Below, one piece after another: positions 35,403 through 63,601 of a stretch of DNA of 64,000 nucleotides. Each line of letters opens with the position of its first letter. Within the stretch, counting starts at the first letter, position 1. The position numbers were made by a program, and so were the translations under genes. The notes beneath the pieces were generated by a model. It worked only from the letters and a program-made list of their open reading frames with translations, did no database searches and was not told the origin of the DNA. The stretch lies in the IMG/VR virus record IMGVR_UViG_3300017971_000033; one strand, given 5' to 3'. This stretch comes from a virus.

Positions 35403-35456
35403 GACTTCTTCACCGAAGTAGGGGATTGTTAATGTTAAGCAACAGGAGTAAAGGTC

Positions 35457-38043: not shown

Positions 38044-38418
38044 ATGGCTTCTGAACTTACCGATGACGAAGCGCAACACATTATCGAGCTAAAGGAACAA
38101 GCAGCAAGAGCTAGTGGGCGGCAACTTCGCCATTTAAGGCGGGTTATCCGCAACAGGATTTTCAGGATTCGGCAAGGCCGGGATGGCTTTGATAACGGAT
38201 TGAAGAAGTTTATTGAAGCGCAGCTTTCTCCGGACCAGTCGCTTGATACCTTTACATTCAATTGGGATATTGCGCCTAATGATCCGATGAAGGTTGTTTC
38301 CCCTTACGAGTGGACTGATTGCGGCGGTACGTTTGAAACGGTCATGGTCTTATGTCAAGACGGCATAACGAGACCGGAACGGCAATGTGATCCGACTGCG
38401 TTCACCAAGCAGGAGTAA
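38044..38418 (+). CDS. hypothetical protein
   Basis: GAGGAGGAA upstream of ATG. Confidence 0.8.
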   Translation: MASELTDDEAQHIIELKEQAARASGRQLRHLRRVIRNRIFRIRQGRDGFDNGLKKFIEAQLSPDQSLDTFTFNWDIAPNDPMKVVSPYEWTDCGGTFETVMVLCQDGITRPERQCDPTAFTKQE

Positions 38419-38424
38419 ATCCTG

Positions 38425-44113: not shown

Positions 44114-45202
44114 ATGATGACAGAGCCAATGATGGCGCCAATCCATGTGCGCCATATGTCGCTGATCCACGCGCAGCAATATGAACGCGGCCACACCAAT
44201 CAGACGACCATGCAAACGGGCGGGCAAAAGATTAAGTTTGTCAATCCGAACATCGACAACTACCCCGACAATCTGGATTTCTATGCCAAGCGCGTGGAAG
44301 AAGGCACTCCGATCTACAAAGCCGGGATGTTGCAGCCGAACACAACCGCTTATGTCATTGGATCCGGGCCGTCGCTAAAGGAAGAGGATTCGGTCAAGGA
44401 AATCCGCAAGGCTTCCAAGGCTGGCAACAAGGTGCTGTTTGCGTGCAAGCAAGCCATCAAATTCCTGCATGACCAAGGGATCAAGATGGAGTATGGCGTC
44501 AGCATGGATCCCGGGGCACATATTGCAAGACCGGAAAAGATCTATAAAGCTCCCGGCATGACGCACATCATTGCAAGCTCAAGTGATCCTCTGCTATACA
44601 AATACCTAAAGGCCGGGATGCCTTTCGCCGATTGGTTAGGTACACTGACCGACCAAGAGGCGCAGCGAGTCCTTGAGGATGACTATGACTCTTGGAAAGC
44701 TGGTGAGTACGAACCCCCGGACGCTGGGGAGGATGCCGCGGAAGTCATGATATTCCACTCAGCGACCGGTTATAAAAACGAAGTCGAGATGTATAACACC
44801 AGATTCCCGACTCATGACTGCATGGGCGGCGGGTATAACGTAGTCAACCGTGCCCTGTCAGCGGCGATCTTCATGGGGGCTGCTGATGCCGTGCTGGTAG
44901 GGACAGACTGCGGATGGCGAGAGGATTCCAGCTTCTATGTTGACGGGGTTGCGCAGCGCAAAGGCGTTGACATGACCGACAAAGGGCTTGTCGAGGGAAC
45001 TGACGAGAATGGCAATCCACTGGAAAACACCGAAGGCGCAGGCGTATGGAATACCCGCCCCGACATGCTGGCGAGCGGAGTTGCGCTTGCAAAGCTGGCA
45101 AAAAGGAATCCGGGGAAGATCCACTTCTACGGCCACACGCTTCCCGCGTTACTGGAAAAGAAATCAATGGAATTTCTAGACAAGTGCGCTGAATTTGGTT
45201 AG
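44114..45202 (+). CDS. DUF115 (MptE-like / motility-accessory-factor Maf-like) protein
   Basis: AYVIGSGPSLKEEDSVKEIRKASKAGNKVLFACKQAIKFLHDQGIKMEYGVSMDPG matches the DUF115 core (vIxGxGPSL ... a.n.a...L...gi.Pd....D). Confidence 0.75.
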   Translation: MMTEPMMAPIHVRHMSLIHAQQYERGHTNQTTMQTGGQKIKFVNPNIDNYPDNLDFYAKRVEEGTPIYKAGMLQPNTTAYVIGSGPSLKEEDSVKEIRKASKAGNKVLFACKQAIKFLHDQGIKMEYGVSMDPGAHIARPEKIYKAPGMTHIIASSSDPLLYKYLKAGMPFADWLGTLTDQEAQRVLEDDYDSWKAGEYEPPDAGEDAAEVMIFHSATGYKNEVEMYNTRFPTHDCMGGGYNVVNRALSAAIFMGAADAVLVGTDCGWREDSSFYVDGVAQRKGVDMTDKGLVEGTDENGNPLENTEGAGVWNTRPDMLASGVALAKLAKRNPGKIHFYGHTLPALLEKKSMEFLDKCAEFG

Positions 45203-46145: not shown

Positions 46146-47288
46146 ATGTCGAATACTCTTGACAACATTATGGCCAAAATCCTCGCGCGTGGTCTGCTTG
46201 CCCTTCGTGAGCAGGCTTCCATGCCGCGACTGGTGAATGGTGACTACTCACGCGAAGCTGCCGAAAAGGGTGACACGATTGATGTGCCGATTCCTTCCGG
46301 TATTACCGCCTCGGATGTTACTCCTGCGCCTGTTTATTCCAGCGCTTCTAACTCCACTCCGGGCAAGGTTCAGATTCCTCTGGACAACTGGAAAAAGACC
46401 AACTTCTATCTGACCGACAAGGACATGGTAGAAATCGACCGCAACGAGCACTTCATTCCCATGCAAATGAGCGAGGCCATTCGTGCTCTTGCCAATGCCG
46501 TGAATGAGGACATCTTTGCGGAGTATAAGGGCGTCTACGGCTATACCGGCACCGCTGGTACTACGCCTTTCGCCTCTACCGTTGTGGCAGCTACAAACGC
46601 TCGCAAGGTCCTGCACCAGCAGCTTGCCCCGCGCGACAATCGCCGCGGTGTGCTGAGCTACGATGCGGAAGCCAACGCACTCGCGCTGGCACCGTTCGCT
46701 GATGCGGAAAAGACCGGCAGCACCGGCGTCAAGATCGAAGGTGAGATCGGCCGCAAGTACGGCATTGACTGGTATGCGGATGATGCCGTGCCGGTTCATA
46801 CCGCTGGTGGCGCGACTGCTTCTGCTATTGTGGTCGGTAGCGCGGTTGCCGCTGGTACCTCCTCGATCGATATGACTGGTGGCAACAACACAACTTTGCT
46901 TCCGGGTGACATCTTCACCATTGCAGGTGATACGCAGACTTACGTGGTCAATGCCACTGCCGTCATCGTTTCCACCGGCAATGTCGCTGTCAGCATTACG
47001 CCTAACCTCAAGGCTGATGCTTCCAGTGAAGCCGTAACGGTTGTGGGTGATCATACGGTCAATCTGGCTTTCCACCGTGACGCCTTTGCTTTTGCAAACC
47101 GTCCGCTGATGCAGAGCACTGCCGACATGCAGCTCGGTAGCCGCATCATGGCAATGACTGATCCGCAGACCGGTATCAGCCTGCGCCTTGAGGTGTCCCG
47201 CCAGTACAAGCAGGTCACTTGGGAACTGGATATCCTGTGGGGTGCCAAGCTGGTCCGTCCGGAACTGGCAACCCGTATTGCAGGTTAA
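46146..47288 (+). CDS. major capsid protein (P22 coat-protein-like family)
   Basis: The N-terminus LDNIMAKILARGLLALREQASMPRLVNGDYSREAAEKGDTIDVPIP matches the P22 gp5-like family signature. Followed by a strong terminator. Confidence 0.85.
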   Translation: MSNTLDNIMAKILARGLLALREQASMPRLVNGDYSREAAEKGDTIDVPIPSGITASDVTPAPVYSSASNSTPGKVQIPLDNWKKTNFYLTDKDMVEIDRNEHFIPMQMSEAIRALANAVNEDIFAEYKGVYGYTGTAGTTPFASTVVAATNARKVLHQQLAPRDNRRGVLSYDAEANALALAPFADAEKTGSTGVKIEGEIGRKYGIDWYADDAVPVHTAGGATASAIVVGSAVAAGTSSIDMTGGNNTTLLPGDIFTIAGDTQTYVVNATAVIVSTGNVAVSITPNLKADASSEAVTVVGDHTVNLAFHRDAFAFANRPLMQSTADMQLGSRIMAMTDPQTGISLRLEVSRQYKQVTWELDILWGAKLVRPELATRIAG

Positions 47289-47324: not shown

Positions 47325-47360
47325 GCCCCGCTCCTTCTCCCGAGGGCGCGGGGTTTTTTT
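47325..47360 (+). terminator. rho-independent terminator after the coat gene
   Basis: CCCCGC (47326-31) pairs with GCGGGG (47348-53), followed by TTTTTTT (47354-60). Confidence 0.8.
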
Positions 47361-47380: not shown

Positions 47381-47785
47381 ATGAAACTTTCTACAGTCAA
47401 AATCCGCAACAAGAAAACCGGCGCAACGACCGTGATCAATGAAGTCGATTGGGCGCATGATCTTGGTCGTGGTCAGTGGCGCGGATGGGAACGCTATGGC
47501 GAGATGCACACGGGCCTTGTAAAAGACAAGCTCGTGCTGTCAGACAATATGGATACCGCCGACAAAACGCTGCACAAAGCCGTACTGGATTCGATACCGC
47601 AAGGGGTTGACATCGAAGAGCCGTCAGGGCAGAGTCTCTCCAGCGACGAGAAATCTGCTCAACAAGAGCCTGCGTTCATTATTAATGAACAAGCGGAAAC
47701 GGTGAACAAACCGCGTGGTGTCACAGCAGACAGTGACGCAAAGAAACCACGCCGCCGCCGCCGTCGCAAAACCGAGGAAAGCTAA
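47381..47785 (+). CDS. hypothetical protein with an Arg-rich C-terminus (KKPRRRRRRKTEES)
   Basis: GAGGAG upstream; ORF track. Confidence 0.75.
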   Translation: MKLSTVKIRNKKTGATTVINEVDWAHDLGRGQWRGWERYGEMHTGLVKDKLVLSDNMDTADKTLHKAVLDSIPQGVDIEEPSGQSLSSDEKSAQQEPAFIINEQAETVNKPRGVTADSDAKKPRRRRRRKTEES

Positions 47786-47854: not shown

Positions 47855-48658
47855 ATGATTATTACTTCCTTCTCGCAGAAGGGCTATCATGAATACGGGA
47901 AGCGGTTTATAGAAGGCTTCCTAAAGCACTGGAAGGATCAAACACTCACGGTCTACTATGAGCATGGCATCCCGTCAGCCGCGCCGAAGGATGACCGCAT
48001 TATCTACAAAGACCTTTACTCATTCGATGATTTCAAGCAGATCGAGGCTGTGCTGAATAACAGTGATCCGATTTACTCCGGGAAACATATCAACCCGCAG
48101 AATCCGCAGCAGCAGGTCTACAACTTCCGATATGACGCTAATCGGTTCTACCGAAAAGTGTTCGCTATCTGCGACGCATGCCACTCGCAAAACGGAATCG
48201 TTGCGTGGGTTGATGCGGACGTAGTATTCAAGGCCGATATCCCGCCGAACTTCCTGCAAGGCATATTTGCCGTAAAGGAAGGTGAGCCAGAATTCTATAT
48301 GGCCGTGCTTGAGCGCAAGTGGCTCTACAGCGAAAACGGTTTTGTCGGCTTCAATACCAACCATCCCGCAAACAATTTCTTTATGCCGCTTTGGTATAAC
48401 ACCTATGCGGAAGGCGCGTTCAAATACCTCGGAGAATTCCATGATTGTTACTCAATGGACTTTATCCGCACGGCGATGGCTATCCCGTACAAGAACCTGA
48501 ATCCGAATGAGCAAAGCAACCATCCCTTTCAGGAGTCAATACTCGGGGAATACATGGAGCACCTCAAAGGCCCGGAGCGGAAAGCGCAAGGCGGTCTGCT
48601 AGACAAGGATCCGGGAGTAGAAAAACCGGAAACACAAAGGCCGAAGGTGTTGTCATGA
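47855..48658 (+). CDS. putative nucleotide-sugar-dependent transferase (DXD-containing; family not recognised)
   Basis: GAGGAG upstream. IVAWVDADVVF is a DXD-like motif in a GT-A-like context. The functional call is weak. Confidence 0.5.
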   Translation: MIITSFSQKGYHEYGKRFIEGFLKHWKDQTLTVYYEHGIPSAAPKDDRIIYKDLYSFDDFKQIEAVLNNSDPIYSGKHINPQNPQQQVYNFRYDANRFYRKVFAICDACHSQNGIVAWVDADVVFKADIPPNFLQGIFAVKEGEPEFYMAVLERKWLYSENGFVGFNTNHPANNFFMPLWYNTYAEGAFKYLGEFHDCYSMDFIRTAMAIPYKNLNPNEQSNHPFQESILGEYMEHLKGPERKAQGGLLDKDPGVEKPETQRPKVLS

Positions 48659-49689
48659 AAAAGACCGCGCTTGTCACCGGCGCCTCGGGGCAGGATGCCG
48701 CTTACCTAATCGAGCTATTACTGCAAAAGGGTTACGAGGTCTATGCAGGCATGCGCAGGACGGCCAGCATGAACCTCTGGCGGCTCAAGGAGCTTAGTCT
48801 TGTCACGGAGTCAGAGTATGAGGAACACAATCCAGCACAAGGCCTGACCTTCCTTAATTTCGATGTGACATGCTCCGCGCAGGTCAACAATGTGATTGAT
48901 GAGGGACAATTCGACGAGGTATATAACCTTGCAGCCATGTCCTTTGTCCCGGAGTCATTCGCTTCGCCGGTTGCCACGTTTCAAATAAACGCCGTTGGCG
49001 CGCTGAACATCATGGCCGCGATCAACCAGTTCTCGCCATCCACGAGACTCTACCAAGCTAGCACCTCGGAGATGTTCGGCCTTGTCAATGTCGAGTCACA
49101 GGGAGAGGATACGCCATTCCACCCGCGCAGCCCCTATGCGGTTGCGAAGGTAGCCGCGCACTATGCCGTGCAGAATTACCGCGAAGCATACGAGAATTTC
49201 TTTTGCTCCGGGATTCTGTTTAACCATGAATCACCGCTCCGGGGTGAAGAGTTTGTAACGCGGAAAATCACCAAGGCTGTTGCGCGTATCGTTGCCGGCA
49301 AGCAGCAGTTCCTTGAACTCGGGAACCTCGATGCCTACCGCGATTGGGGCCATGCTCGTGATTATGTTTATGCCATGTACCTCATGCTGCAACAGGACGA
49401 GCCGGAGGACTTTGTGATTGCCACGGGCGAAAAGCATAGGGTTTGGGATGTCGTCCACACGGCCTTCACCTATGTCGGCATCGATGTCTGGGCCGAACAC
49501 CTGATGAAAAACCCGGATCTGATGCGGCCGTCAGAAGTTCCGCTGTTACTCGGTAATCCAGCAAAGGCGCAGGACAAACTTGGTTGGAAGCGAGCTTATG
49601 ATTTCGAGACCATGATTCGTGAGATGGTTGACTACGACTTATCGAGAGAGGGCGTGGATCCGATCATATACCACGCGCAACTCGCATGA
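48655..49689 (+). CDS. gmd: GDP-mannose 4,6-dehydratase
   Basis: Collinear with E. coli Gmd: ALVTGASGQDAAYLIELLLQKGYEV, EVYNLAAMSFV, LYQASTSEMFG, PFHPRSPYAVAK, GILFNHESPLRGEEFVTRKIT, LGNLDAYRDWGHARDYV, QQDEPEDFVIATG. Confidence 0.93.
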   Translation: MKKTALVTGASGQDAAYLIELLLQKGYEVYAGMRRTASMNLWRLKELSLVTESEYEEHNPAQGLTFLNFDVTCSAQVNNVIDEGQFDEVYNLAAMSFVPESFASPVATFQINAVGALNIMAAINQFSPSTRLYQASTSEMFGLVNVESQGEDTPFHPRSPYAVAKVAAHYAVQNYREAYENFFCSGILFNHESPLRGEEFVTRKITKAVARIVAGKQQFLELGNLDAYRDWGHARDYVYAMYLMLQQDEPEDFVIATGEKHRVWDVVHTAFTYVGIDVWAEHLMKNPDLMRPSEVPLLLGNPAKAQDKLGWKRAYDFETMIREMVDYDLSREGVDPIIYHAQLA

Positions 49690-49937
49690 ATATAGAACTC
49701 GATTTTATAAACAAGATCCTCTACATCAAGGAAGGTATGCGGCTTGCTGAAATCTTTTTGGAGGTTAAAGACCTTTATGCCGATGACCCGGATGTAGAGT
49801 TCCCGTTCAAGACCCTTGAGCAACTTGAGGACGGGACCGAAGTCTTTTATCTTCACCCCGACTGGAAGTGTTTACCATTCACCAAGAAAGGAGATCCGCT
49901 ATATGTTGCCCCAGACCGGAGAAAGACAAGTAGCTGA
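49686..49937 (+). CDS. hypothetical protein
   Basis: ORF track; ATGA overlap. Confidence 0.65.
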   Translation: MNIELDFINKILYIKEGMRLAEIFLEVKDLYADDPDVEFPFKTLEQLEDGTEVFYLHPDWKCLPFTKKGDPLYVAPDRRKTSS

Positions 49938-50568
49938 AACGCTGGACGGTATCAAGCCGAACCACAAGCATAGATATAACTTCGCTATAAACCAGATCAA
50001 GGCATTGTTCGGTGACAACCCCAGCATCAACATTGTTGACTGCGCCTGCGGTATTGGATACGGCACCTATATGCTCGCCACCGCTTTCCCGGAAGCGCGT
50101 GTAATCGGCATCGATATCCATCAGCCTGCTGTAGATGCTGCTACCCGTGCTTATGGGGAAGGCAATAATAGATTCCAGCAAGCAGACCTCAGCAAGCGCG
50201 AAGAGTTTGAGGCTGCGTTGGTGGATGGCTTTGACGGGGAAAAGCAGAAGGTTGATGTAATCGTCAGCATAGAAACCATCGAGCATGTCAAGGATGATGA
50301 GGCATTAATCCAAATGTACGGCGAACATGCTTCTGTGCTGGTTGGTTCGGTGCCTAACGAGGAAGTGGTACCGTTCAACCGTGACACGCATCCCTTCCAC
50401 TTTCGCCATTACACAAAAGACGAGTTCACTGAACTCTTGTCAAAGTCTGAATACACGGTCAAGCAATGGGCTACTCAGTACGAGAAGATCCCGGGCCATG
50501 TCTATGATGCTGATGACGGCATGGGTTTTGTGGTAACAGCCATTCAAGGCGAAGCTGTCAACGCATAG
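49903..50568 (+). CDS. class I SAM-dependent methyltransferase
   Basis: Start MLPQTGERQV... at 49903, preceded by AAAGGAGA. IVDCACGIGYGTYMLA is SAM motif I, followed by VIGIDI and DVIVSIETIEHV. Confidence 0.8.
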   Translation: MLPQTGERQVAETLDGIKPNHKHRYNFAINQIKALFGDNPSINIVDCACGIGYGTYMLATAFPEARVIGIDIHQPAVDAATRAYGEGNNRFQQADLSKREEFEAALVDGFDGEKQKVDVIVSIETIEHVKDDEALIQMYGEHASVLVGSVPNEEVVPFNRDTHPFHFRHYTKDEFTELLSKSEYTVKQWATQYEKIPGHVYDADDGMGFVVTAIQGEAVNA

Positions 50569-50604
50569 CAACTTCTGGAAAACACCACGCAGGAGGAAGC
50601 AGCC

Positions 50605-51480
50605 ATGAAGGTAGGAATATTTACTCCGGGGGATAACAAGGTTCACCAAAAGGCGCTCAAGGCTTTTGCGGAAGGCGTGGCAAAGGTCAACGAAGATGTC
50701 ACCATCTACTCGGTTGATAACTACACGCCGGTCGATGTCGCCATTGTTTTCGGTATCGGCAAGCAGGGAGTCCCGTGTTCCTATGCTCGCGGCAACGTTA
50801 TACGCCAACAGCGCCTTGCAGGGAAAGATGTCATTGTCATCGAGAAGGGCTTTGTCAAGCGCGATGAGTATTACATGGTCGGTCTGAACGGACTGAACAA
50901 CCATGCTGAATTCCATAACCTTGCGTGTCCGGCCGATCGGTGGGAACTCCTCGATGTGAACCTGCATCCCCGGAGAACCGAAGGTCAGCACATTATTGTT
51001 TGCGGACAGGTCCCGTCAGACGCCAGCGTGCAAGACATTGACATTATCCAGTGGTGCCAAAAGACCTGCACTGACCTGAGATCCATGACTGACAAGCCGG
51101 TTGTATTCCGTGCACATCCGCTTGCCCGCAGCAGGACACCTGACATGCTAGGGGTAATCAACTCCCGCAATGACACGCTGATGGATGATTTATACGGAGC
51201 TTATGCCTGTATTACATATAATTCCAACGCGGCTGTTGAGGCGGTCATCGCAGGAGTGCCGGCCTTTTCTTTTAACGCGGGGAGTATGGCGCACAACGTT
51301 ACAAGCCACGATCTGCGAATGATCAACAACCCCTTCTTCCCGTCAGAGTCGGCCCGTAAGCAATGGGCTTGCGATCTTGCTTATACGCAATGGACTCTTG
51401 ATGAGATGCGTACCGGTAGACCTTACCTGCGGCTGATGTCTAGCGGCTTCTCTTTCAGCGAGGTTCAGAATGGAGATTAA
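50605..51480 (+). CDS. glycosyltransferase-like protein resembling capsule KpsS/KpsC (Capsule_synth) Kdo-transferase-type enzymes
   Basis: IIVCGQVPSDASV, FRAHPL and ITYNSNAAVEAVIAGVPAFSFNAGSMA parallel the LQVxxDSQ / HP / TxNSxxGxEAxxxGxPV pattern. Recognised from memory only. Confidence 0.5.
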   Translation: MKVGIFTPGDNKVHQKALKAFAEGVAKVNEDVTIYSVDNYTPVDVAIVFGIGKQGVPCSYARGNVIRQQRLAGKDVIVIEKGFVKRDEYYMVGLNGLNNHAEFHNLACPADRWELLDVNLHPRRTEGQHIIVCGQVPSDASVQDIDIIQWCQKTCTDLRSMTDKPVVFRAHPLARSRTPDMLGVINSRNDTLMDDLYGAYACITYNSNAAVEAVIAGVPAFSFNAGSMAHNVTSHDLRMINNPFFPSESARKQWACDLAYTQWTLDEMRTGRPYLRLMSSGFSFSEVQNGD

Positions 51481-51763
51481 CACCATGCAAGCAGGCATAG
51501 CTCTTGTCATAACGATTGTCGGCGGTACCGTAGCGACAACCAGTTACTTTGTAACAAAGGAAAGCCACGAGAAAGAGATGGTCGTAATGGAACAGCAATC
51601 AGGCGACATCTACCGCGGCATCCGTATTGAGCAGCTTGAGGATAGGGTTTACATCCTCGAAGAAGCAAGGAAGGGACGCGCATTGACTACTGACGAAAAG
51701 ATCCGGCTAGACGCTGCGCAGGAATCACTGAAAGAACTCTACAAACAGGAGGAAAGACGATGA
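51470..51763 (+). CDS. membrane-anchored coiled-coil protein (alternative start 51485)
   Basis: MQAGIALVITIVGGTVATTSYFV TM segment followed by charged helix-forming sequence. Confidence 0.7.
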   Translation: MEINTMQAGIALVITIVGGTVATTSYFVTKESHEKEMVVMEQQSGDIYRGIRIEQLEDRVYILEEARKGRALTTDEKIRLDAAQESLKELYKQEERR

Positions 51764-52071
51764 GCGAAGAGCAGCAAATGATTATGGCGCATGATATGAC
51801 GATTGCCCCGAAATTCCAGATTGACACGGGTATGCACGTGCTTGCCATGAATACCATCATCAGCCATGTGGCTGTGCCGCCTGATTTCAATGCGGCATCG
51901 AAAGACGCGCCCAAGCCGCGCTTTATAAAGCAGCAGCTTTTTAACCTGACGCTTCCGACAGAGATGGATCCGCGTGAACTGGCAACCGCCTTGCGTAATT
52001 ACGCCGACAATCTGGACAAGTATGTTGACGATAATCCACAAGCTGAGGAGTCCTCCGATGCGGTGGGATAA
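51760..52071 (+). CDS. hypothetical protein
   Basis: ORF track; ATGA overlap. Confidence 0.75.
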   Translation: MSEEQQMIMAHDMTIAPKFQIDTGMHVLAMNTIISHVAVPPDFNAASKDAPKPRFIKQQLFNLTLPTEMDPRELATALRNYADNLDKYVDDNPQAEESSDAVG

Positions 52072-53086
52072 TCCGATCTATTGCAAGTGGCTTGAGTTGC
52101 CCGATGTGGCATCGCTCTATCCAGAGGAAAAGCAAAACCGACTTGATGATGACTATGACCCTTGGATCCTCGATGTCGCGGTTACGCGCGGCGATGAGCA
52201 CTCCTTCATGGAGGAGATCCGGTTTGCTATGCACGGCCTCGATGATCCGGCTTTGTTCGACAGGATCCGAAAGCAGTTCCGGGTATATCGCAACAACATG
52301 GTCAGACCGCCGCACAGCAACCATGAGATGATCTTGACACGGGAGCCGGCCAACTCGGTTTTCCAGTCGATCTATAACAATGGGATCTGGATGGGGCAGG
52401 TTGACACAAGCAAGATCAATGTCGGCAAGCTGGTAGACAAGTGGCTGGCAAAGCCTGATTGGCAACCGCCTCCGGGAACCTATGACCGCGGCGAGATGCT
52501 TGGAGCTGAATACATCAAGACGCTACAAGCCGAACTCACCAAGCGCGGAATACTGGAAGCGGCAAGCGCCTATAAGGGGAAGCCGCTAAAAGTCGCAGGA
52601 GCTTATCTGCATATCAGCACGCCGACCGATCAGCACTACCGGCAATTCGGCGGCTATGACGCACCAGTCAATCCGTGGATCAATACACACATCGACCCCA
52701 AGGAGGATTGCATGAAGGCGATCATCTACCTTGAGGGCATCGAAATTAACAACGGCCCTTTTCACTTCATCGAAGGAAGCCATCGCTTTGTTATACCAGC
52801 GCACAAGGAAATACTTGGCAGGGCGTTATGCACCGGCAACTACATGCAGACCCCGGAAGAACGCGCGCCGATTCTTGCCATGCCGAAACCGTTGCGGGTC
52901 TCGTATAACTTTGGCCGCTTTGTCGAAGAGAACTCAGTCTTGAGCCAAGAGATGCTTTTATTCAGACGGACACTTTTGTCCGCAGCAGAGACAAACATCG
53001 CAGTGTTCGATGCAGGCGCAGGCATCCATCAAGGCGGGGTTGTCGAGAAAGGGCGCCGCGTCAACCTGCAAGTGCTAATGAAATAA
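52058..53086 (+). CDS. PhyH-like Fe(II)/2-oxoglutarate dioxygenase
   Basis: Start MRWDNPIYCK... at 52058, preceded by GAGGAG. NTHIDPKED supplies HxD, and IEINNGPFHFIEGSHRF matches the PhyH GxxxxxPGSH region. Confidence 0.7.
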   Translation: MRWDNPIYCKWLELPDVASLYPEEKQNRLDDDYDPWILDVAVTRGDEHSFMEEIRFAMHGLDDPALFDRIRKQFRVYRNNMVRPPHSNHEMILTREPANSVFQSIYNNGIWMGQVDTSKINVGKLVDKWLAKPDWQPPPGTYDRGEMLGAEYIKTLQAELTKRGILEAASAYKGKPLKVAGAYLHISTPTDQHYRQFGGYDAPVNPWINTHIDPKEDCMKAIIYLEGIEINNGPFHFIEGSHRFVIPAHKEILGRALCTGNYMQTPEERAPILAMPKPLRVSYNFGRFVEENSVLSQEMLLFRRTLLSAAETNIAVFDAGAGIHQGGVVEKGRRVNLQVLMK

Positions 53087-53123
53087 AACGCCGATAATTT
53101 TAATCACACAGAGGAGCATTAAA

Positions 53124-53861
53124 GTGACCTTGAATCTATCTGACTCCGTATTGCAGCGACGGGTATTCAATCAAAATATCTACAACCTTCACCGGCAGCA
53201 CTATATGCTCGGGCAAACCGCGAAGTTCATTGACAAGAATTCCATTGTTCTCGATATCGGCGCGGCGGTTGGTATGTATACGCACTTCTGGGCCGGTCTT
53301 GCCAAGCATGTATATTCCTTCGAGGCTGTGCCGCCAGTTTATGAGCAGCTCAAGCTGGTTGCCGACAGGAATGACAATGTGACCGCGATCAACTACGCCG
53401 TTGGTAGAGAGGACAAGGATGAAGTTACTTTCTACGTTGATGACAAGCGGCTATCCAATAGCGGTCTCCGGGATCTTGTCGGCGGTCAGCCGATAACCGT
53501 TGAGATGGTGTCTATTGACTCATGGGCGCAGTCATGGATTGATAGCTCACCGGATAACATGGGAATTGGTCTCATCAAGATCGATGTCGAAGGCAATGAA
53601 CTGGATGTCTTGCGCGGCGCTACGTTGACCATATCAAACGAGCGGCCAGCGGTTATGTGCGAGGTTTATCCGAAATTCAATGACGGCCCTGTTGCTGATA
53701 CCTTCCACTTCCTGATGGATATTGGATACCGGTGCTTTTATAACATCCGGGGACAAGGCTTAAAGGAAATCACCTCGGTCGCAGAAGGCGTCGATGTCGC
53801 CAGCAACGAGCAGCTTATTCCGCTGCATGACGGCGACTTCCTGTTTGTCTACAAGGACTGA
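53124..53861 (+). CDS. FkbM-family methyltransferase
   Basis: GTG start preceded by AGAGGAG. VLDIGAAVGMYTHFWA...VYSFEAVPPVYEQL...IKIDVEGNELDVLRGA is the FkbM pattern. Confidence 0.82.
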   Translation: MTLNLSDSVLQRRVFNQNIYNLHRQHYMLGQTAKFIDKNSIVLDIGAAVGMYTHFWAGLAKHVYSFEAVPPVYEQLKLVADRNDNVTAINYAVGREDKDEVTFYVDDKRLSNSGLRDLVGGQPITVEMVSIDSWAQSWIDSSPDNMGIGLIKIDVEGNELDVLRGATLTISNERPAVMCEVYPKFNDGPVADTFHFLMDIGYRCFYNIRGQGLKEITSVAEGVDVASNEQLIPLHDGDFLFVYKD

Positions 53862-53863
53862 GC

Positions 53864-53980
53864 ATGAACGTTGAACTTCTAATCGGCCTCGGGCTTTTCC
53901 TGATAGCATTAGCGGCTATTGTCAAGTTATATGTTCGGTGGTGGTGCGAGAACGCGCACAGGTTAGGCGATGGCGATTGA
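53864..53980 (+). CDS. small membrane protein candidate (38 aa)
   Basis: MNVELLIGLGLFLIALAAIVKLYVRWWCENAHRLGDGD. Overlaps the next start. Below the ORF-track cutoff. Confidence 0.4.
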   Translation: MNVELLIGLGLFLIALAAIVKLYVRWWCENAHRLGDGD

Positions 53981-54596
53981 ACTAGAGAACTCGATCTTCA
54001 TTCATATTCCCAAAACGGGAGGCCGTTGGGTTGCCAATGTCTTGAGGAAAATGGGATACAAGGACATCGGTGATCCTATCTATCAGGCGCATGAATGTCC
54101 GCAGGTGGATGGCAAGCCGGCCTTTGCTTTTGTCCGGCATCCTGTAACGATGCTGAATAGTCTTTGGCACCACCGCGCGCGTAAGCACACCAACACCAGA
54201 CACAAGGATTGGAACTGGCAGCAGGATCATCGGCTGGAGAAGGAGTGCGGGTGTCCCGATCTCCGGGAATTCTATGGCCGCGTCGCAGAACGTCCGGGGA
54301 TTGTTTGGGAATATTACATGGAGTGGATGCATTACTATGATTCCTTTTCCCTATGGAAATACGAGGATCTTGCAAACGAGTTGATCCGCGCCTTGCAGTA
54401 TTACGAGGAGCGCTTTGACGCAGACTTTATCAGGGCCAGCGCAAAGCAGGTTATCGGTGGCACAAAGAACCCGCTACGGATAATGCAGGAAGCGCCTTAT
54501 TATGCTTACCGGATTATTGCTAATGAATCGCAGCTATACCGGCGATTTGGCTATGACGATTTTATGCTCAAGAGGATCTTGGAAAATGAAACGTAG
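53970..54596 (+). CDS. sulfotransferase (carbohydrate sulfotransferase-like)
   Basis: IFIHIPKTGGRW is the PAPS 5'-phosphosulfate loop (compare HIQKTGGT in HS6ST-type enzymes). FAFVRHPVTMLNSLWHH is the 3'-phosphate-binding RxPxxRxxS-like motif. Confidence 0.75.
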   Translation: MAIELENSIFIHIPKTGGRWVANVLRKMGYKDIGDPIYQAHECPQVDGKPAFAFVRHPVTMLNSLWHHRARKHTNTRHKDWNWQQDHRLEKECGCPDLREFYGRVAERPGIVWEYYMEWMHYYDSFSLWKYEDLANELIRALQYYEERFDADFIRASAKQVIGGTKNPLRIMQEAPYYAYRIIANESQLYRRFGYDDFMLKRILENET

Positions 54597-54960
54597 AGAG
54601 TTCTTCAAGCTGTTCGGCAAGGCCGCAGGTGCCGTAGGACTCGGTGCTATAGCAAACAAAATACCGGCAGCTACTCCTGCTGTCATGGAACCAGCACCGA
54701 AGGCAGTAAGCAGTGAAGGGGAGTGGGTGTGTTTTTCGTTTTATCCGCAAAGCATCGAGATGGGATTAGAGCCGGGAGATGTGGTGCAGGTGTCTCGGGG
54801 CCTAATTATCGGGATGGACGATGACGGCCGCGTGACCGAGTGCATGATTAAACCAAAGCAGCAACTCATCAACGTGAGAATTCACGAAATCGAATACGAG
54901 GCCGGATGGACGGGCTATGACGGCCCGATTGTTTGCCGCGTAAAGGGGAAAGTAGCATGA
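54586..54960 (+). CDS. small exported protein with a twin-arginine (Tat) signal peptide
   Basis: Start MKRREFFKLFGKAAGAVGLGAIANKIPAATPA... at 54586. KRREFFK fits the S/T-R-R-x-F-L-K motif. Confidence 0.65.
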   Translation: MKRREFFKLFGKAAGAVGLGAIANKIPAATPAVMEPAPKAVSSEGEWVCFSFYPQSIEMGLEPGDVVQVSRGLIIGMDDDGRVTECMIKPKQQLINVRIHEIEYEAGWTGYDGPIVCRVKGKVA

Positions 54961-55691
54961 TCAGAATCTTCATCGGCTATGACTATGCGGAAGCCGCCGC
55001 ATACCATACGCTATGCCATAGCATCATTGAGAGGTCATCGGTGCCGGTATCAATCACGCCGATCGCCAAGCGACACTTTAAGCATATCCACGACAGGCCG
55101 ACAGACCCAAACCAGTCAAACGAGTTTGCCTTCACGCGCTGGCTAGTGCCGTACCTTTGCGGGTACAAGGGTTGGGCCATCTTCATGGACTGCGACATGC
55201 TCGTGCTCGATGACATCAATAACCTCTGGAAAATCAGGGACGAGAACTACGCGGTGCAGGTTGTCAAGCACGACCATCAGCCGAAGAACAAGATCAAATA
55301 CCTTGGCACCAAGCAAACGCTCTACCGTTACAAGAACTGGTCATCGGTCATGCTGATGAATACCGCAAAATGCAAGCAGCTAACCCCGGAAGTGATAAAT
55401 GAGATGCACGGGCTGGATCTCCACCAGTTCAAGTGGCTGGACGGCCTACACCAAATCGGTGACTTGCCACTAGAATGGAATTACCTTGTGGATTATTATC
55501 ACAACAGGAGCGCAGACACCCTGAGCTTACTGCACTACACAGAGGGAGGCCCGTATTTCCGGGATTATACTGACTGCGATTTTGCAGACCTCTGGTGGCG
55601 CGAGTGGCATGCGATGAACCATTGCAATAATGCCAGCTTCGACACGCACCGGGACATAAGGATCAGGAGCGATAGAGATGGCGACGATTGA
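54957..55691 (+). CDS. GT8-like glycosyltransferase
   Basis: Start MIRIFIGYDYAEAAAYH... at 54957 (ATGA). FAFTRWLVPYLCGYKGWAIFMDCDMLVLDDI provides DXD. KNWSSVMLMN and DLPLEWNYLV match the phage GT8-like family pattern. Confidence 0.82.
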   Translation: MIRIFIGYDYAEAAAYHTLCHSIIERSSVPVSITPIAKRHFKHIHDRPTDPNQSNEFAFTRWLVPYLCGYKGWAIFMDCDMLVLDDINNLWKIRDENYAVQVVKHDHQPKNKIKYLGTKQTLYRYKNWSSVMLMNTAKCKQLTPEVINEMHGLDLHQFKWLDGLHQIGDLPLEWNYLVDYYHNRSADTLSLLHYTEGGPYFRDYTDCDFADLWWREWHAMNHCNNASFDTHRDIRIRSDRDGDD

Positions 55692-56193
55692 TGCGACGAT
55701 AGGCGGGGCAAATAGCAATAGTTATGTCACGCATGCTTATGCTTCTTCCTTCTGGGCTGATTCGATTTATTCAGCCAATTGGGATGGATACACGGCAGAC
55801 GATCAGAACAAGCTGCTCATCATGGCGACGCGCACGCTGGATGACTGGTATGACTGGAAAGGCTCGAAGGCAACCGACACGCAGGCGCTACGCTGGCCGC
55901 GTTACGGAGTCGATGATCAAGATGGCTACTGGATTGACAGCGATGCGCTTCCGGTAAACCTCAAGGATGCCACGGTTGAGCTTGCTGGATACCTTGCCAA
56001 TGTAAATCCAAGCGCTGAACCTGACACAAAGGGATTCAGACGGATCAAGGTTGATGTGCTTGAGCTGGAGATCGACAAAGCAGACCGCGACAGCACGACC
56101 GCAATCCCGGATTCAGTTATGAAGATGCTAGATCACCTCGGGGCGGTAAAGTCCCGCGGCGGCGATGCTAGCGTCAAGCTGGTGAGGACTTAA
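55678..56193 (+). CDS. head-tail adaptor / connector protein (gp6-like)
   Basis: GGANSNSYVTHAYASSFW is a typical N-terminus of this family. First structural gene after the island. Confidence 0.7.
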   Translation: MATIDATIGGANSNSYVTHAYASSFWADSIYSANWDGYTADDQNKLLIMATRTLDDWYDWKGSKATDTQALRWPRYGVDDQDGYWIDSDALPVNLKDATVELAGYLANVNPSAEPDTKGFRRIKVDVLELEIDKADRDSTTAIPDSVMKMLDHLGAVKSRGGDASVKLVRT

Positions 56194-59674: not shown

Positions 59675-60009
59675 TAGGCTGGTTTGAATGGAATGTTGAA
59701 TGGGGGAAATATGAGGAGTTCTTGCAGGATGTCGAGAAGTCCACTGGCAAGGCACCTCAGGCACTCCAGAACAAACCAGATTATCCATCGGAGCACGGAG
59801 AATATCTTGAAGCGTTTGACTTACTATCGAGGGGAAGGAGGCAAGGATTTGGCGTAGGGTTTATCCCGCTTTCGGAGATAGAAGTTTATTGCCGAATGTT
59901 TGACGTTGTTGATGTCGAGTTGTTTGTGCGGGTTATTGTTGAACTTGACTCGGTATTCATGCAACACATCGAAAGGCTGAGAAAAGAACGGGAGCGGAAG
60001 CATGGCTGA
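59279..60009 (+). CDS. tail assembly chaperone frameshift product (GT-like; -1 shift near 59663-59669)
   Basis: The -1 frame is open from 59656 to 60009 with no credible own start. A G-run gtggggga lies just before the G stop. The end overlaps the tape-measure start. Confidence 0.55.
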
Positions 60010-63000
60010 CATACGCGCAATTGGAATCGGGCTTGACGCCAGCAACTTTAGCAAGGGCGTAGACCAAGTTGACAGCGGTCTTGACCGGTTAGCCCGTAAC
60101 ACCAATCAAAAAACCGGGAAGATCTCCCGGAGCTTCAAGGATCTCGCAAAATCATTGAACCCGCTTCGCGGTGGCATCCAGTCACTGGTCGCGGGTATTT
60201 CTTTCGGTGCAGTAATCAAGAACGCATCGAACTTCCAAGCCAAGATCGCCGAAGTCAAGACGCTGGTGGATGACACCAGTCAGATTGACAATATGACCAG
60301 CTCATTGCGCGACCTCGCTGTTGAGTTCGGGCAGTCTCCGGTTGGTCAGGCGGCATCGACTTACGACATCTTTTCTGCTGGCGCGGCCAATGCAGCCGAA
60401 GCGCTTGACACATTAACCGCGGCGAACAAGCTGGCGGTCGGTGGTGTCACGGATGTTGCCACGGCAACTGGCGGCTTAACTTCGTTTCTTAATGCCTATG
60501 CAGAAGATGGTTTGTCGGCAACTGAGATTAGCGACAGTTTATTTGTCGCAATGCGCGCCGGTAAGACGACTATCGGCGAGTTATCAACAACGCTCGGTAA
60601 GGTTGCGCCGTTAGCGGTTGCGGTTGGCGTGTCCTTTGACGAGCTAACTTCGAGTATTGCCGCACTGACAAAGGGCGGTATCACAACGAAAGAATCTGTC
60701 ACGGGTGTCCGCGCCATCCTCGCTGCGGTAGCCAAGCCTACCAGTGAAGCGGTTGAGCAAGCTGAAAAGCTGGGACTGGAATTTAATGCGGCCGCGATCG
60801 AGGCGAAAGGCTTTCAAGGATTCCTCAAGGATGTTGTTGACGCGACTGGCGGCAGCAATGAAGCACTCGCTCAGTTGTTCGGTGGCGTCGAGGCATTAAT
60901 CCCGATCATGGCATTGGCCGGTCAAGCTGGTGTTGATATGAATGACATCCTTGACCAAATGGCGATGAAGGGCGGCGCGACAGAGGAAGCCGTCACAAAG
61001 ATCCGGGAATCTTTTGACTTTAAGCTGGGGCAGTTCACCGCGGCCTTCTCTGCGTTCACCATTGAGCTCGGTGGTGCATTGCTTCCCGCGTTGACTGCTG
61101 TGGCAGAGGCCGGCACGGCATTGATCTCTGTGATCCGCGGATTAAGCGATGAGTTTGCCTTGCTGGCGAAACTGGTTGTCATCGGTGGTGCGTTATCTAT
61201 CGCCATGAAAACCTATCCGCTCTTGCTGACCGCATACGGTGCTGCTGCACTTGCTGCGACCAAGGCAACCTTCTCGTTTGCCGCTGCTCAAACCTTCCTG
61301 CTTGGTACCTTCGCCAAAGTCCGCGGCGGTATTGGCCCGACGATCAAATCTTTCGGCCTGATTAACACGGCAATGGCTGGTGTTGCTGCGGCTGCTGCTG
61401 GTTGGCAGTTCGGGACGTACCTCCGGGAGAAGTTCTTGGAGGTTCGGCTATTCGGAATTGCAATGGTAGAAGGGTTAATCGTTTCATGGGAGCGGTTGAA
61501 AGGTGCATGGCGCGCAGTCAAGGCCGTGTTCGCGCTTAACTTCGACGAAGTGAAAACAATCGCCTTCGAGACCGAGCAAGCTGTCAAGAAGATCCAAAAG
61601 GATTTCAGCGACCTTGCTGACGCGGAAATAGAAGCCGAAGCAAGGATCACTGTCACGAAGCCGGATAGCTTGAGTGGAGGAGCGCAACCGGAAATCCCGG
61701 AACCGCCGCCTGCTGGCCCTTCGCCGATCTCTGACGAGGTAAAGACCGCGCAAGACGCCATCAATAGTCTGCTCCAGCAGTATCAGAAGGAAGCCGCGCT
61801 TGCCTCGGACGCTACCGAGATGCAGCGTGTCCAGTATGAATTGCTGAACGGTGAACTTGCCAAGGCTAACGGATTCAGGAATGAGGAACTGCTGACTGCT
61901 GCCGCGCAGGTGGATCAGATCCGTGCCGTGCGCGATGCCGACAAGGTGCTTGAGGGTTACTCCAAGACGCTGGCGCTTTCGTCCGACAATTCCGAGGAAG
62001 CGCGGATCCGCTATGAGTTGCTCGCCGGTTCTTTGAAGAACCTCGGGGATGAAGCAAAGAAGGTCGAACTGATCGATGCGGCCATGCTGCAAGATCAGAA
62101 CAAGCTGGTCATGGACGCGACCACGCTGATTAAGAACATGACAACGCAGGTGGAGACCGCGGGCTTTACCACGCGCGAGCAAGCTGTCGCTTATGAGTTT
62201 GCCAGCGGCCGACTTGCCGGACTCAATGATGAATTCGGAAACCTCGAGGAGCAGGCGCTTGATGCGGCTCGTGCCTTGGATCAAATCAACTTGCAGAAAG
62301 AGGGCGATGCGCTGACGCAGGCGATTGACCCTGCTGCGCGTTATGCAGCCGCAATCGAACGGCTGAACCGGTTGCGCGATGCTGGCGTGATTTCCGCGGA
62401 GACCTACAGCGAGGCCGTGTGGAATGAGACCAAGCGCAGCAACGAGGCGATTGGTGTATTCCGGGATTCCTTCGCGGATTTCTTCGGGGATATTCGGGAA
62501 GGTACCATGTCGGTCTCGGATGCCTTCGGGGCGATGGCCGACAATATCCTTGACAGGCTTTTCCAGTTGTCAGCCGAAGCCGCGGCTGATGACCTTGCTC
62601 AGCTCCTCTTCTCCGGGGCGGCGCCGGCTCCCGGGGATTCGGTCGGCCTTTCCGGGATATTCGGCCAGTTCACAGGGGCCGGTGGCGAGTCTGGGGCTCC
62701 TGTGGGGCCGTCTGGGGCGCTTTCCGACATTACCCCTTCTAATCCCCTTCCGGTGCAAGAGGTCAGTCCCGTGGAGTCTTTAGGGGCCGCAGGGGACCTG
62801 CTTGGGGGATTCGGTGGCGAGAATGGCGATCAGGAGGCCGCACAAGCCACACAGGAGGCGATAAAGACCGGCTATGAAAACGTATTCACGGAAACCGAAG
62901 CGGCCTCACAAGGCCTCTGGAGCCGTCTGGGGGCGGGCTGGGATGGATTGCTGGATTCCTTCGGCAGCGGCTTCTCCCGGATCACCGAGACCATAAGCGG

Positions 63001-63601
63001 CTTGTTTTCCTCCGGGGGAGCTGGCGCCTCGACTGGCGGCGCTGGTGGATCCGCGGGGGGATTTTCCCAGCTAGCCACAATGGCTTTGTCATTCTTTGCC
63101 GCTCATGGCGCCGTGGCGAATATCGGCAACGGCCATGCTGATGTCATGCGCTTTGCCAGTGGTGGCAGTTTCCGCGTTGGTGGATCTGGCGGGATAGACT
63201 CTCAGCTTGTCAGCATGAAGGCTGACCCCGGGAGTCTTGTCACGATTACTCGTCCCGAGCAAAAGTCCCGGATGAAGGGTTATGCCCACGGCGGGAAGGT
63301 TGCTACCCAAAACGGGTATCTGTCTTTTCTTGCCAGCCCGAATGAGCAAGTTGATATTCACACCCCGCGCTTTGCCAGCGGCGGCGCTATCGGTTCGCTC
63401 AATATGTTCTCGGATCTTCCGGGAGGCCAGCCGTCAACACCGCAGAAATCCAGCGAGGAAGGTGCAACAACGCAGCAGTCCTATACCGTCAACAATACTT
63501 TCGTCTTACCGAAAGACGGCAATGTGTCGAAATCATCGCAGCAGCAGATTGCTAGCAAAGCTAGTGGATCACTTGCCGCCGCTCAGCGGAGACTACAGTA
63601 A
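60002..63601 (+). CDS. tail tape measure protein
   Basis: 1199 aa, Ala/Gly-rich and helical with hydrophobic central segments. Position after G/GT. Confidence 0.9.
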   Translation: MADIRAIGIGLDASNFSKGVDQVDSGLDRLARNTNQKTGKISRSFKDLAKSLNPLRGGIQSLVAGISFGAVIKNASNFQAKIAEVKTLVDDTSQIDNMTSSLRDLAVEFGQSPVGQAASTYDIFSAGAANAAEALDTLTAANKLAVGGVTDVATATGGLTSFLNAYAEDGLSATEISDSLFVAMRAGKTTIGELSTTLGKVAPLAVAVGVSFDELTSSIAALTKGGITTKESVTGVRAILAAVAKPTSEAVEQAEKLGLEFNAAAIEAKGFQGFLKDVVDATGGSNEALAQLFGGVEALIPIMALAGQAGVDMNDILDQMAMKGGATEEAVTKIRESFDFKLGQFTAAFSAFTIELGGALLPALTAVAEAGTALISVIRGLSDEFALLAKLVVIGGALSIAMKTYPLLLTAYGAAALAATKATFSFAAAQTFLLGTFAKVRGGIGPTIKSFGLINTAMAGVAAAAAGWQFGTYLREKFLEVRLFGIAMVEGLIVSWERLKGAWRAVKAVFALNFDEVKTIAFETEQAVKKIQKDFSDLADAEIEAEARITVTKPDSLSGGAQPEIPEPPPAGPSPISDEVKTAQDAINSLLQQYQKEAALASDATEMQRVQYELLNGELAKANGFRNEELLTAAAQVDQIRAVRDADKVLEGYSKTLALSSDNSEEARIRYELLAGSLKNLGDEAKKVELIDAAMLQDQNKLVMDATTLIKNMTTQVETAGFTTREQAVAYEFASGRLAGLNDEFGNLEEQALDAARALDQINLQKEGDALTQAIDPAARYAAAIERLNRLRDAGVISAETYSEAVWNETKRSNEAIGVFRDSFADFFGDIREGTMSVSDAFGAMADNILDRLFQLSAEAAADDLAQLLFSGAAPAPGDSVGLSGIFGQFTGAGGESGAPVGPSGALSDITPSNPLPVQEVSPVESLGAAGDLLGGFGGENGDQEAAQATQEAIKTGYENVFTETEAASQGLWSRLGAGWDGLLDSFGSGFSRITETISGLFSSGGAGASTGGAGGSAGGFSQLATMALSFFAAHGAVANIGNGHADVMRFASGGSFRVGGSGGIDSQLVSMKADPGSLVTITRPEQKSRMKGYAHGGKVATQNGYLSFLASPNEQVDIHTPRFASGGAIGSLNMFSDLPGGQPSTPQKSSEEGATTQQSYTVNNTFVLPKDGNVSKSSQQQIASKASGSLAAAQRRLQ

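Follow-up and report, generated by a model that had tools for sequence, protein, structure and literature searches.

The window analysed here is the whole 64,000-nt stretch of the IMG/VR record IMGVR_UViG_3300017971_000033, along which all positions are numbered; it represents most of the genome of an uncultured tailed phage with a leftward early arm and a rightward late arm. In the late arm, a block of open reading frames (ORFs) at 47855–55691, referred to here as the island, encodes a set of glycan-forming and glycan-modifying enzymes. Its left boundary is the gene of the major capsid (coat) protein (46146–47288, +; PHROG 283, 5.9e-77) and its right boundary is the gene of the head-tail adaptor Ad1 (55678–56193, +; PHROG 477, 2.6e-37; PF20557, 1.1e-30). 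The coat gene is followed by an intrinsic-terminator-like hairpin with a T-run (47338–47360, +; stem 47338–47353, then seven T residues), which corresponds to the coat-gene terminator proposed earlier from the letters alone (the sequence-only reading), and by the gene of a small post-coat protein of 134 aa (47381–47785, +), which is ancestral and not specific to the island. The island itself, entirely on the + strand, consists of genes for a GT-A fold glycosyltransferase with a DAD motif (47855–48658), GDP-mannose 4,6-dehydratase (Gmd, 48655–49689), a class I S-adenosylmethionine (SAM)-dependent methyltransferase (49903–50568), an enzyme resembling the retaining β-transferases of 3-deoxy-D-manno-oct-2-ulosonic acid (Kdo), which is the signature gene of the set (50605–51480), three variable tailoring enzymes, namely a PhyH-type Fe(II)/2-oxoglutarate dioxygenase (52058–53086), an FkbM-family methyltransferase (53124–53861) and a sulfotransferase of the 3'-phosphoadenosine 5'-phosphosulfate (PAPS) type (53970–54596), and finally a GT8-like GT-A glycosyltransferase with a DCD motif (54957–55691). 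Four small ORFs are interspersed. Two of them, of 83 aa (49686–49937, overlapping the start of the methyltransferase gene and also called as a gene on an ENA contig) and 103 aa (51760–52071), are without a Pfam match, the third encodes a 97-aa protein with one N-terminal hydrophobic helix and no family match (51470–51763), and the fourth is an orphan with a twin-arginine-like N-terminus, a motif read by eye (54586–54960).

The description of the block as co-oriented and translationally coupled was borne out. Stops and starts overlap or abut at 48655/48658, 49686/49689, 51470/51480, 51760/51763, 54586/54596, 54957/54960 and 55678/55691, most of the ORFs overlapping by 4–14 nt, and sequences similar to GAGG or AGGAG precede most of the ORFs. 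An independent gene caller applied to the ENA contig with the same genes placed the starts of the methyltransferase and dioxygenase genes at positions equal to 49903 and 52058. The G+C content is flat throughout the block (0.50–0.53) and equal to that of the flanks. The hairpin after the coat gene is the only clear stem followed by seven T residues on the + strand between 43.5 and 58.5 kb, and promoter-like and terminator-like sites within the block occur at chance level. With the coat gene followed by a single terminator, and with promoters and terminators not in excess within the block, the island genes are probably co-transcribed with the late morphogenesis genes, as the sequence-only reading had supposed. 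None of the enzymes of the block contains a 19-residue segment exceeding 1.5 on the Kyte-Doolittle scale and all are soluble by prediction. The 97-aa ORF at 51470 is the sole ORF of the block with a membrane segment (19-residue maximum of 1.83 at residues 10–28).

The signature protein encoded at 50605–51480 is a single domain of 291 aa which matched no Pfam, NCBIfam or PHROG family; the only weak Pfam match was DUF6716 (E 0.17) and no Pfam capsule-synthesis model was hit. Its AlphaFold2 (AF2) model (predicted local distance difference test score, pLDDT, 94.9) was compared with the PDB by Foldseek: ranks 1–26 were all retaining β-Kdo transferases (KpsC, WbbB, KrkA), with E-values from 9e-10 (KpsC) to 2e-5 and template-modelling (TM) scores of 0.45–0.55. 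The family profile aligned GQVPSDAS with GQVESDAS of KpsC (the QxxxD motif) and RAHP with KPHP (the HP motif), and the motif residues are largely retained among 83 viral relatives (Q135 in 79, D139 in 72, H171 in 74 and P172 in 76). According to the titles of the PDB entries, the Asp within QxxxD is the nucleophile in both KpsC (D160) and WbbB (D232). By its fold and motifs, the protein is supported as a retaining β-Kdo-transferase-like enzyme, and transfer of Kdo from CMP-β-Kdo is predicted for it. It resembles KpsC/KpsS (GT107) and WbbB (GT99) in fold, in both motifs and in the presence of a CMP-Kdo synthetase gene in the same genome. It differs from them in its single-domain architecture, in its marginal sequence similarity (best profile-to-PDB E-value 0.029), in its location in a phage late operon instead of a kps or O-antigen locus and in its acceptor, which is possibly not a lipid. 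The closest viral fold matches to the model were proteins of Tetraselmis virus 1 (1e-21, TM 0.79).

Two further genes outside the island complete the Kdo part of the set. The CMP-Kdo synthetase KdsB is encoded in the leftward early arm (8626–9360, −) and exceeded the NCBIfam NF003952 cut-off (201.9 bits versus 193; Pfam CTP_transf_3, 1.1e-38). A KdsB pattern scan of IMG/VR yielded no confirmed relative. KdsB would supply the activated donor CMP-Kdo, which is circumstantial evidence for the predicted activity of the 50605 protein. A DUF115/MptE-like (Maf-like) protein of 362 aa is encoded between the MuF and scaffold genes (44114–45202, +; PF01973, 3.9e-16, 59.7 bits versus a cut-off of 34.6). 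Both calls of the sequence-only reading are thereby above the family cut-offs. Against the PDB, the DUF115 family profile found the Maf structure 5mu5 (2.1e-6), the match being limited to the central domain of that protein (approximately residues 264–440 of 666 aa). The flanking N- and C-terminal domains of Maf were not found in the phage protein, and the comparison did not single out Maf over MptE. The protein is a candidate CMP-ulosonic-acid transferase, judged by its sequence relationships. The gene was seen only in relatives that bear the island, and it was present in all of these whose sequence extended upstream of the scaffold gene. It is KdsB, the β-Kdo-transferase fold and the DUF115 gene together that make the Kdo component of the glycan concrete.

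The families of the proteins encoded at 47855, 50605, 52058 and 53970 could be assigned only with family profiles, transitive Pfam matches and structure prediction. The 47855 protein matched no Pfam, NCBIfam or PHROG family, and its family profile retrieved only noise from the PDB sequences (convulxin and solanesyl-diphosphate synthase on top). Its AF2 model, built from 37 homologues (pLDDT 94), matched retaining GT-A enzymes of GT6 (a3GalT, GTA/GTB) and GT8 (XXYLT1, LARGE1) in the PDB by Foldseek, with 3.6e-7 for a3GalT 5nre; in the D-A-D motif, D122 is invariant and D120 nearly so. A GT-A gene of this type is present in 32 clustered loci and is a conserved core member. Gmd matched PF16363 over its full length (379.8 bits, 1.8e-113; model positions 1–332 of 332, residues 6–324 of 344). 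Neither a reductase nor an aminotransferase acting on its product was found in the window; such an enzyme may come from the host, or the viral Gmd may itself be bifunctional, which is reportedly the case in chlorovirus PBCV-1. The class I methyltransferase at 49903 matched Methyltransf_12/25/23/31/11 (3e-11 to 1e-8), and its gene adjoins the Kdo-transferase-like gene in many loci. The GT8-like protein at 54957 passed the PF01501 cut-off (25.4 bits versus 24.3) and matched PHROG 28018 (5.9e-39), its homologues being annotated as nucleotide-diphospho-sugar transferases; it is 53–54% identical to a glycosyltransferase of Pelagibacter phage Mosig.

As for the tailoring enzymes, the 52058 protein itself had no direct Pfam match. 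Four homologues (P0092–P0095, E about 1e-50) carry PF05721 (PhyH), the H211-x-D213...H324 iron triad is invariant, and the best PDB profile match, albeit weak (E 0.015), was the sugar-modifying oxygenase HygX (4xc9). The FkbM methyltransferase was recognized directly (PF05050, 1.5e-16). For the 53970 protein alone, only a sub-threshold match to PHROG 3347 (8e-4) and one to Sulfotransfer_1 with E 0.021 were obtained. An exhaustive HMMER search found 604 relatives in a representative library, and the resulting family profile matched SULT4A1 (1e-3) and HS6ST3 (2.7e-3) across the PAPS-binding motifs, while Sulfotransfer_2 was matched by 16 of 60 relatives. In the PKTGG motif for the 5'-phosphosulfate, P14, K15 and G18 are nearly invariant, and in the R-x-P...S motif for the 3'-phosphate, R56, P58 and S64 are invariant. 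Searches of the PDB with single sequences gave no match for the dioxygenase, the sulfotransferase or the GT8-like protein. Every enzyme proposed for the island was thus supported at family or fold level (Pfam, PHROG, profiles or AF2/Foldseek), and so was the suggestion that the genes form a toolkit for a methylated or sulfated glycan of deoxyhexose and ulosonic acid, the Kdo part of it by KdsB, the fold and DUF115. The Tat-signal ORF was a different case. Its N-terminus MKRREFFK (MKRREFFKLFGKAAGAVGLGA...) contains RREFFK followed by a moderately hydrophobic stretch, as read by eye, and the ORF overlaps both neighbours. It had no homologue in any of the 138 fetched loci and an HNH gene occupies its slot in one related locus (L016), so this non-conserved ORF is probably not part of the system.

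Comparison with related phages showed that the island is an insertion relative to distant relatives, as had been suspected, and that it is old and widespread. The coat gene, the small ORF and the adaptor gene are adjacent, with nothing between them, in phages SSP002 and MW202657 and in the IMG/VR loci L006–L010 (52–64% coat identity). Megablast of the region against 50,697 GenBank phages gave no match, which means that the phage has no close sequenced relative; its coat protein is at most 49.5% identical to that of any deposited phage, the nearest being a Manatee Spring siphovirus and Vibrio SSP002-like phages, with 45–50% identity to the P22-coat-like capsid proteins of the latter. Among relatives with 65–75% coat identity, the island is present in the same order and differs in content: the GT-A, methyltransferase and Kdo-transferase-like genes are constant, whereas those of Gmd, GT8-like, PhyH, FkbM and sulfotransferase have been gained or lost. 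One of these islands (L018) carries a radical-SAM/SPASM enzyme, a second methyltransferase and a 665-aa protein instead. Another, L016 (ENA ERZ27251083 k141_623775, the same contig as IMG/VR L011 and L021), contains the full set of the window, with three HNH genes placed between its members and Gmd split by an intein. The Gmd gene of L016 (11184–13199) encodes 671 aa, and the spacing of about 1 kb between its halves would fit an intein; its MuF gene (4248–5759) carries Hint/intein domains. Misassembly of the island was rejected because the same gene order is found in many independent assemblies.

This variability might mean that the island is simply a passenger: the junction of the coat and adaptor genes would be a hot spot that tolerates insertions, and the cassette a mobile set of auxiliary genes whose benefit has nothing to do with its position and whose target could be a virion protein, the host envelope or something else. 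Rapid turnover of accessory genes among close relatives (Gmd, PhyH, FkbM, sulfotransferase, radical SAM, DegT, GT9, SIS and cupin) would be expected of such a set, as would the three HNH genes and the inteins in Gmd and MuF of L016 and the GIY-YIG gene beside the island of L018. Other big insertions in head modules point in the same direction: one is at 30398–39804 in the window, and another, of about 6.5 kb, separates MuF from the scaffold gene in L007 (2677–9166), a relative without the island. The head module therefore accommodates large insertions at several junctions. We nevertheless consider a mere passenger improbable. The DUF115 gene, which was seen only in phages bearing the island, has a second place of its own in the head module, and the wider distribution of the cassette, described below, is hard to explain by neutral insertion alone, as the same core recurs in the same kind of position in three lineages with unrelated capsids and in many prophage-like loci.

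The profile of the Kdo-transferase-like family retrieved 346 relatives from IMG/VR, so that the uniqueness implied by the sequence-only reading did not hold. The loci of the best 80 of these 346 were analysed by clustering their ORFs and annotating the cluster representatives. The cassette is found in the head-to-neck region of three unrelated structural-module lineages, mostly between the coat and adaptor genes, and it consists of a constant core and variable tailoring genes, the core being the Kdo-transferase-like gene, usually accompanied by a methyltransferase gene and a GT-A or DUF115 partner. In clade A (capsid proteins 67–75% identical) the cassette lies between the coat and adaptor genes. 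The position is the same in clade B, whose coat proteins show about 51% identity, with other accessory genes; the cassette of this clade comprises GT9-like, Kdo-transferase-like, PhyH, FkbM, methyltransferase and SIS-domain isomerase genes. In lineage C, TerL, portal (PHROG 12), protease (PHROG 1684) and HK97-type capsid (PHROG 10) genes and a 150-aa ORF are followed by a gene for a 200-aa DUF115-like protein, sometimes a methyltransferase or Sulfotransfer_2 gene, and the Kdo-transferase-like gene, after which come gp6-like connector, Hc1, Neck1, tail terminator and major tail protein genes. The 200-aa protein is homologous to the DUF115 protein of the window (hhalign 92.6%, E 4.6e-7). Lineage D shows a capsid gene of PHROG 1328, other genes, GT-A, methyltransferase, Kdo-transferase-like and DegT aminotransferase genes and an SU10-type adaptor gene. 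In 46 of 68 viral loci, a recognisable capsid gene lies no more than 6 kb upstream and/or a connector or neck gene follows on the downstream side, at up to 5 kb except in two loci; both flanks were present in 19 of the 68, many of the others ending at contig edges. The lineage C arrangement was also found in 10 of 38 matches in bacterial genomes, which are prophage-like, one of them in the cultured Filomicrobium insigne (CGMCC 1.6497; NZ_FNJC01000004.1, 80665–97387). Tandem Kdo-transferase-like paralogues, three to five in number, occur in L047 (7977–12860 and 16244), L055, L072 and L067 and suggest oligo- or poly-Kdo products; in L047 a KdsB gene is nearby.

Homologous genes exist in cultured phages as well. 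In Caulobacter phage CcrColossus, the depositors labelled gp126 sialyltransferase-like; it is homologous to the DUF115 protein (32% identity, 1.5e-26) and is followed by two Kdo-transferase-like genes, a GT8-like gene and a GT9 gene, and CcrPW carries a related set (gp126–131 of CcrColossus/CcrPW). Pelagibacter phage Mosig encodes two methyltransferases, GT-A and GT8-like enzymes, two Kdo-transferase-like proteins and an annotated sulfotransferase (00183–00191). Sulfotransferase genes are therefore not peculiar to the island either, being present in the Mosig cassette and, as Sulfotransfer_2 genes, in those of lineage C. The Kdo-transferase-like genes of CcrColossus/CcrPW and Mosig are annotated as hypothetical, and no functional study of these glycan clusters was found in the literature searched. 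Their positions differ from that of the island, the CcrColossus set lying after the tail genes and before the lysis cassette and the Mosig set beside ribonucleotide reductase genes.

What these enzymes would make, and on what, can be proposed as follows. A Kdo-containing, methylated and sulfated glycan may be assembled late in infection, in the cytoplasm, on a virion protein; we put this forward tentatively, giving it a little short of an even chance of being right. Phage KdsB would make CMP-Kdo, and the DUF115/Maf-like protein and/or the β-Kdo-transferase-like enzyme would attach and extend Kdo. The GT-A enzymes encoded at 47855 and 54957 would then add hexose or 6-deoxyhexose units, for which Gmd would supply GDP-4-keto-6-deoxymannose, and the tailoring of the glycan would fall to both methyltransferases, the PAPS sulfotransferase and the PhyH-type oxygenase. 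The acceptor would most likely be a protein on the surface of the virion, be it the coat protein, the small post-coat protein or a further component of the head or neck, O-glycosylated during assembly, and the outcome would be a particle with an acidic glycan coat similar to a lipopolysaccharide (LPS) core or a capsule. The order of the steps, the sugars other than Kdo and 6-deoxyhexose, and the acceptor are all what we infer from the gene content. The soluble nature of the enzymes, the embedding of their genes in the late operon, the recurrent head-to-neck placement and the kinship of DUF115 to Maf suggest glycosylation of the virion. Maf enzymes O-link Kdo from CMP-Kdo to Ser/Thr (bioRxiv 10.1101/2020.06.03.131540; PMC11339370), and transferases encoded by mycobacteriophages glycosylate capsid and tail-tube subunits, as summarised in PMC12619734 and PMC12363180.

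Several observations weigh against glycosylation of the virion. The first concerns the acceptor, which is putative. An alignment of coat proteins of island-bearing and island-lacking phages revealed no C-terminal extension and no Ser/Thr insert, the proteins with or without the island being collinear to the last residue and ending in ...RIAG. The small post-coat protein, in which a conserved N-terminal domain (about 45 aa) precedes a disordered tail of acidic and basic character, aligns across island-bearing and island-lacking relatives and hence is not specific to the island. Besides Maf, the DUF115 profile retrieves the pterin kinase MptE with a score nearly as good (8sd5, 3.7e-5). The HNH and GIY-YIG genes in or beside the island and the intein in Gmd in L016 and L018 leave room for the hot-spot explanation discussed above. 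The cassette of Mosig adjoins ribonucleotide reductase genes, outside the structural genes, and that of podovirus MW202713 lies upstream of the terminase gene. In addition, Planctomycetota chromosomes and a Myxococcales metagenome-assembled genome (MAG) carry GT-A, methyltransferase, Kdo-transferase-like and GT8-like genes near which no phage structural genes were detected. The Myxococcales locus (L132, QZKR01000020.1, 7887–13129) additionally contains FkbM, radical-SAM and DUF115 genes. This locus and the cassette on the Pirellulaceae SH449 chromosome (L102) are either glycan loci of the cell or prophages that escaped recognition. Among cellular Kdo-transferase-like genes, the closest are those of Planctomycetota (40–46% identity). 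The copies in Mosig, MW202713 and bacteria indicate that the cassette also occurs away from phage head modules and that it probably exchanges with cellular glycan loci.

With regard to the acceptor, a difference was observed in a surface-loop-like stretch at coat residues about 58–72 (gene at 46146–47288), where most island-bearing phages have PAPVYSSA(S/P)NS and island-lacking ones PP(T/A)PGDTTP, with L018 as an exception; it is too weak to be taken as an acceptor site. The sequence-only reading had pointed to the giant proteins encoded at 30398–39804, which it took to be Ser/Thr-rich, as obvious candidate acceptors. This did not stand up: the ORFs contain only 19–21% Ser+Thr, and the giants were rejected as an obligatory acceptor because L016 has a complete island and no large genes between the portal and MuF genes. 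These ORFs (667, 475, 818 and 459 aa, and others) matched no convincing Pfam or PHROG family, apart from one weak match to a PHROG of unknown function, and had no homologues in the related loci. They represent a second large insertion into the head module; their products may be fibres or receptor-binding proteins.

Some of the same observations would fit remodelling of the host envelope, the main rival of virion glycosylation, in which the enzymes would act on a host glycolipid at a late stage of infection. This could be LPS, at its core or its O-antigen terminus, or else a phosphatidylglycerol-borne Kdo-linker/capsule intermediate. The phage might in this way mask receptors on debris and vesicles, by which the progeny would be spared, or exclude competing phages. 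The structurally closest enzymes, KpsC, WbbB and KrkA, act on lipid-linked glycans, and known β-Kdo transferases use glycolipids or lipid-linked glycans and not proteins as acceptors, which also tells against a virion target. Furthermore, GT9, the heptosyltransferase family, is represented in clade B and CcrColossus and the SIS isomerase in clade B, which recalls the Kdo-heptose inner core. The location of the Mosig cassette outside the structural genes and the cassettes on bacterial chromosomes are in line with an envelope target, and comparable gene sets of T4-like cyanophages, including KdsA and KdsB, are conventionally read as serving modification of the host surface (PMC12801897). However, the scanned ORFs of the window included no recognisable initiating transferase for a lipid carrier, flippase or ABC exporter, and expression within the head-tail operon would leave little time before lysis. 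Moreover, an envelope target leaves unexplained the repeated head-to-neck placement and the presence of the DUF115 partner beside the scaffold and coat genes. We regard host remodelling as rather unlikely, and the comparative data lean towards the virion as the target, without being decisive.

An extension of the proposed virion glycosylation beyond the window is that tailed phages of Gram-negative and aquatic bacteria, from at least three unrelated capsid lineages and together with prophages and the Caulobacter jumbo phages, build in the cytoplasm and directly on the virion a Kdo-based glycan that is variably methylated, sulfated and oxidised and similar to LPS core or capsule, with the DUF115/Maf-like protein and the β-Kdo transferase as the core. 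This generalisation is conceivable, and we are more inclined to doubt than to accept it.

The nearest precedents are only partly similar. Maf flagellin O-glycosyltransferases of nonulosonic acids have the PF01973 domain in common with the phage protein, and 5mu5 is its best solved relative; the phage DUF115 proteins are, however, only 200–362 aa long versus 666 aa in the solved Maf, correspond to the central domain only and have no flagellin as a partner. Mycobacteriophages Che8, Corndog and Myrna likewise encode their own transferases, which act during virion production, as summarised from Freeman et al. 2023 in PMC12619734, PMC12363180 and PMC11256854; in the literature searched, only mycobacteriophages were documented as tailed phages with glycosylated particles. 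Those systems differ from the island in several respects. They belong to actinobacteriophages, the transferase genes of cluster F1 lie near the 3' end of the genome, unlike the island, and no Kdo transferase, DUF115 protein, KdsB, sulfotransferase or dioxygenase is mentioned in the papers cited. The mycobacteriophage glycans are located on the C-termini of capsid and tail-tube proteins, whereas the coat protein of the window has no C-terminal extension, which is a further point against a virion glycan here. The concept is also similar in giant viruses (chloroviruses and mimivirids), where virus-encoded sugar-nucleotide enzymes, transferases and methyltransferases build virion glycans; the set of sugar-nucleotide enzymes of PBCV-1 includes GMD. 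In contrast to the phages discussed here, giant viruses have eukaryotic hosts and unrelated capsids, and there is no synteny of these genes with structural genes. Literature searches on phage Kdo transferases, DUF115, KdsB or sulfotransferases in connection with capsid glycosylation did not retrieve a description of the cassette.

Further genes of the window were assigned as well. The rightward arm starts with TerL (26698, +) and portal (28168, +; DUF4055) genes, between which and the MuF head-morphogenesis gene (41539, +) the large ORFs at 30398–39804 are located, and continues with the scaffold gene (45269, +). Downstream of Ad1 there are neck genes, the tail tube gene (58045, +; Phage_tube_2) and a 1199-aa ORF (60002–63601, +), which by its size and position is probably the tape measure gene. 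No tRNAs that could point to a host were found in the window. Upstream of the terminase genes lie a weak MazG-like ORF (21502–22077) and a gene for a C5 cytosine DNA methyltransferase (24662–25687; PF00145, 2.7e-42). The presence of these two genes, together with the fact that DNA-modifying glycosyltransferases are common in phages (PMC12619734), brings into consideration a target that is neither a glycoprotein nor the envelope, i.e. hypermodification of phage DNA or a soluble sugar-derived metabolite. The cassette is, however, situated in the late structural operon and not with the genes of replication. No part in DNA modification is known for Kdo transferases, sulfotransferases or Gmd, and the scanned ORFs revealed no enzyme for the hydroxymethylation or excision of bases. 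Such a target is very improbable in our opinion.

If the cassettes decorate virions, glycosylation of the particle would be a widespread trait of phages and not a mycobacteriophage curiosity. It would be the first case of virion glycosylation outside actinobacteriophages, and the first natural protein-linked β-Kdo and the first sulfated glycan on a bacterial virus. If the host envelope is the target instead, the cassettes would represent a new kind of late-expressed, receptor-masking chemistry. Related sets are present in the cultured phages CcrColossus, CcrPW and Mosig and in prophage-like loci such as that of Filomicrobium insigne, and the finding is therefore directly testable. The Kdo-transferase-like family, which is poorly annotated (without a Pfam or PHROG model and hypothetical in cultured phages), could serve as a simple genomic marker. 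A phage-encoded glycan coat, if it exists, would bear on the stability, adsorption and aggregation of phages, on grazing and immune recognition, and on how the sugar genes described as "auxiliary metabolic" in metagenomes are to be read.

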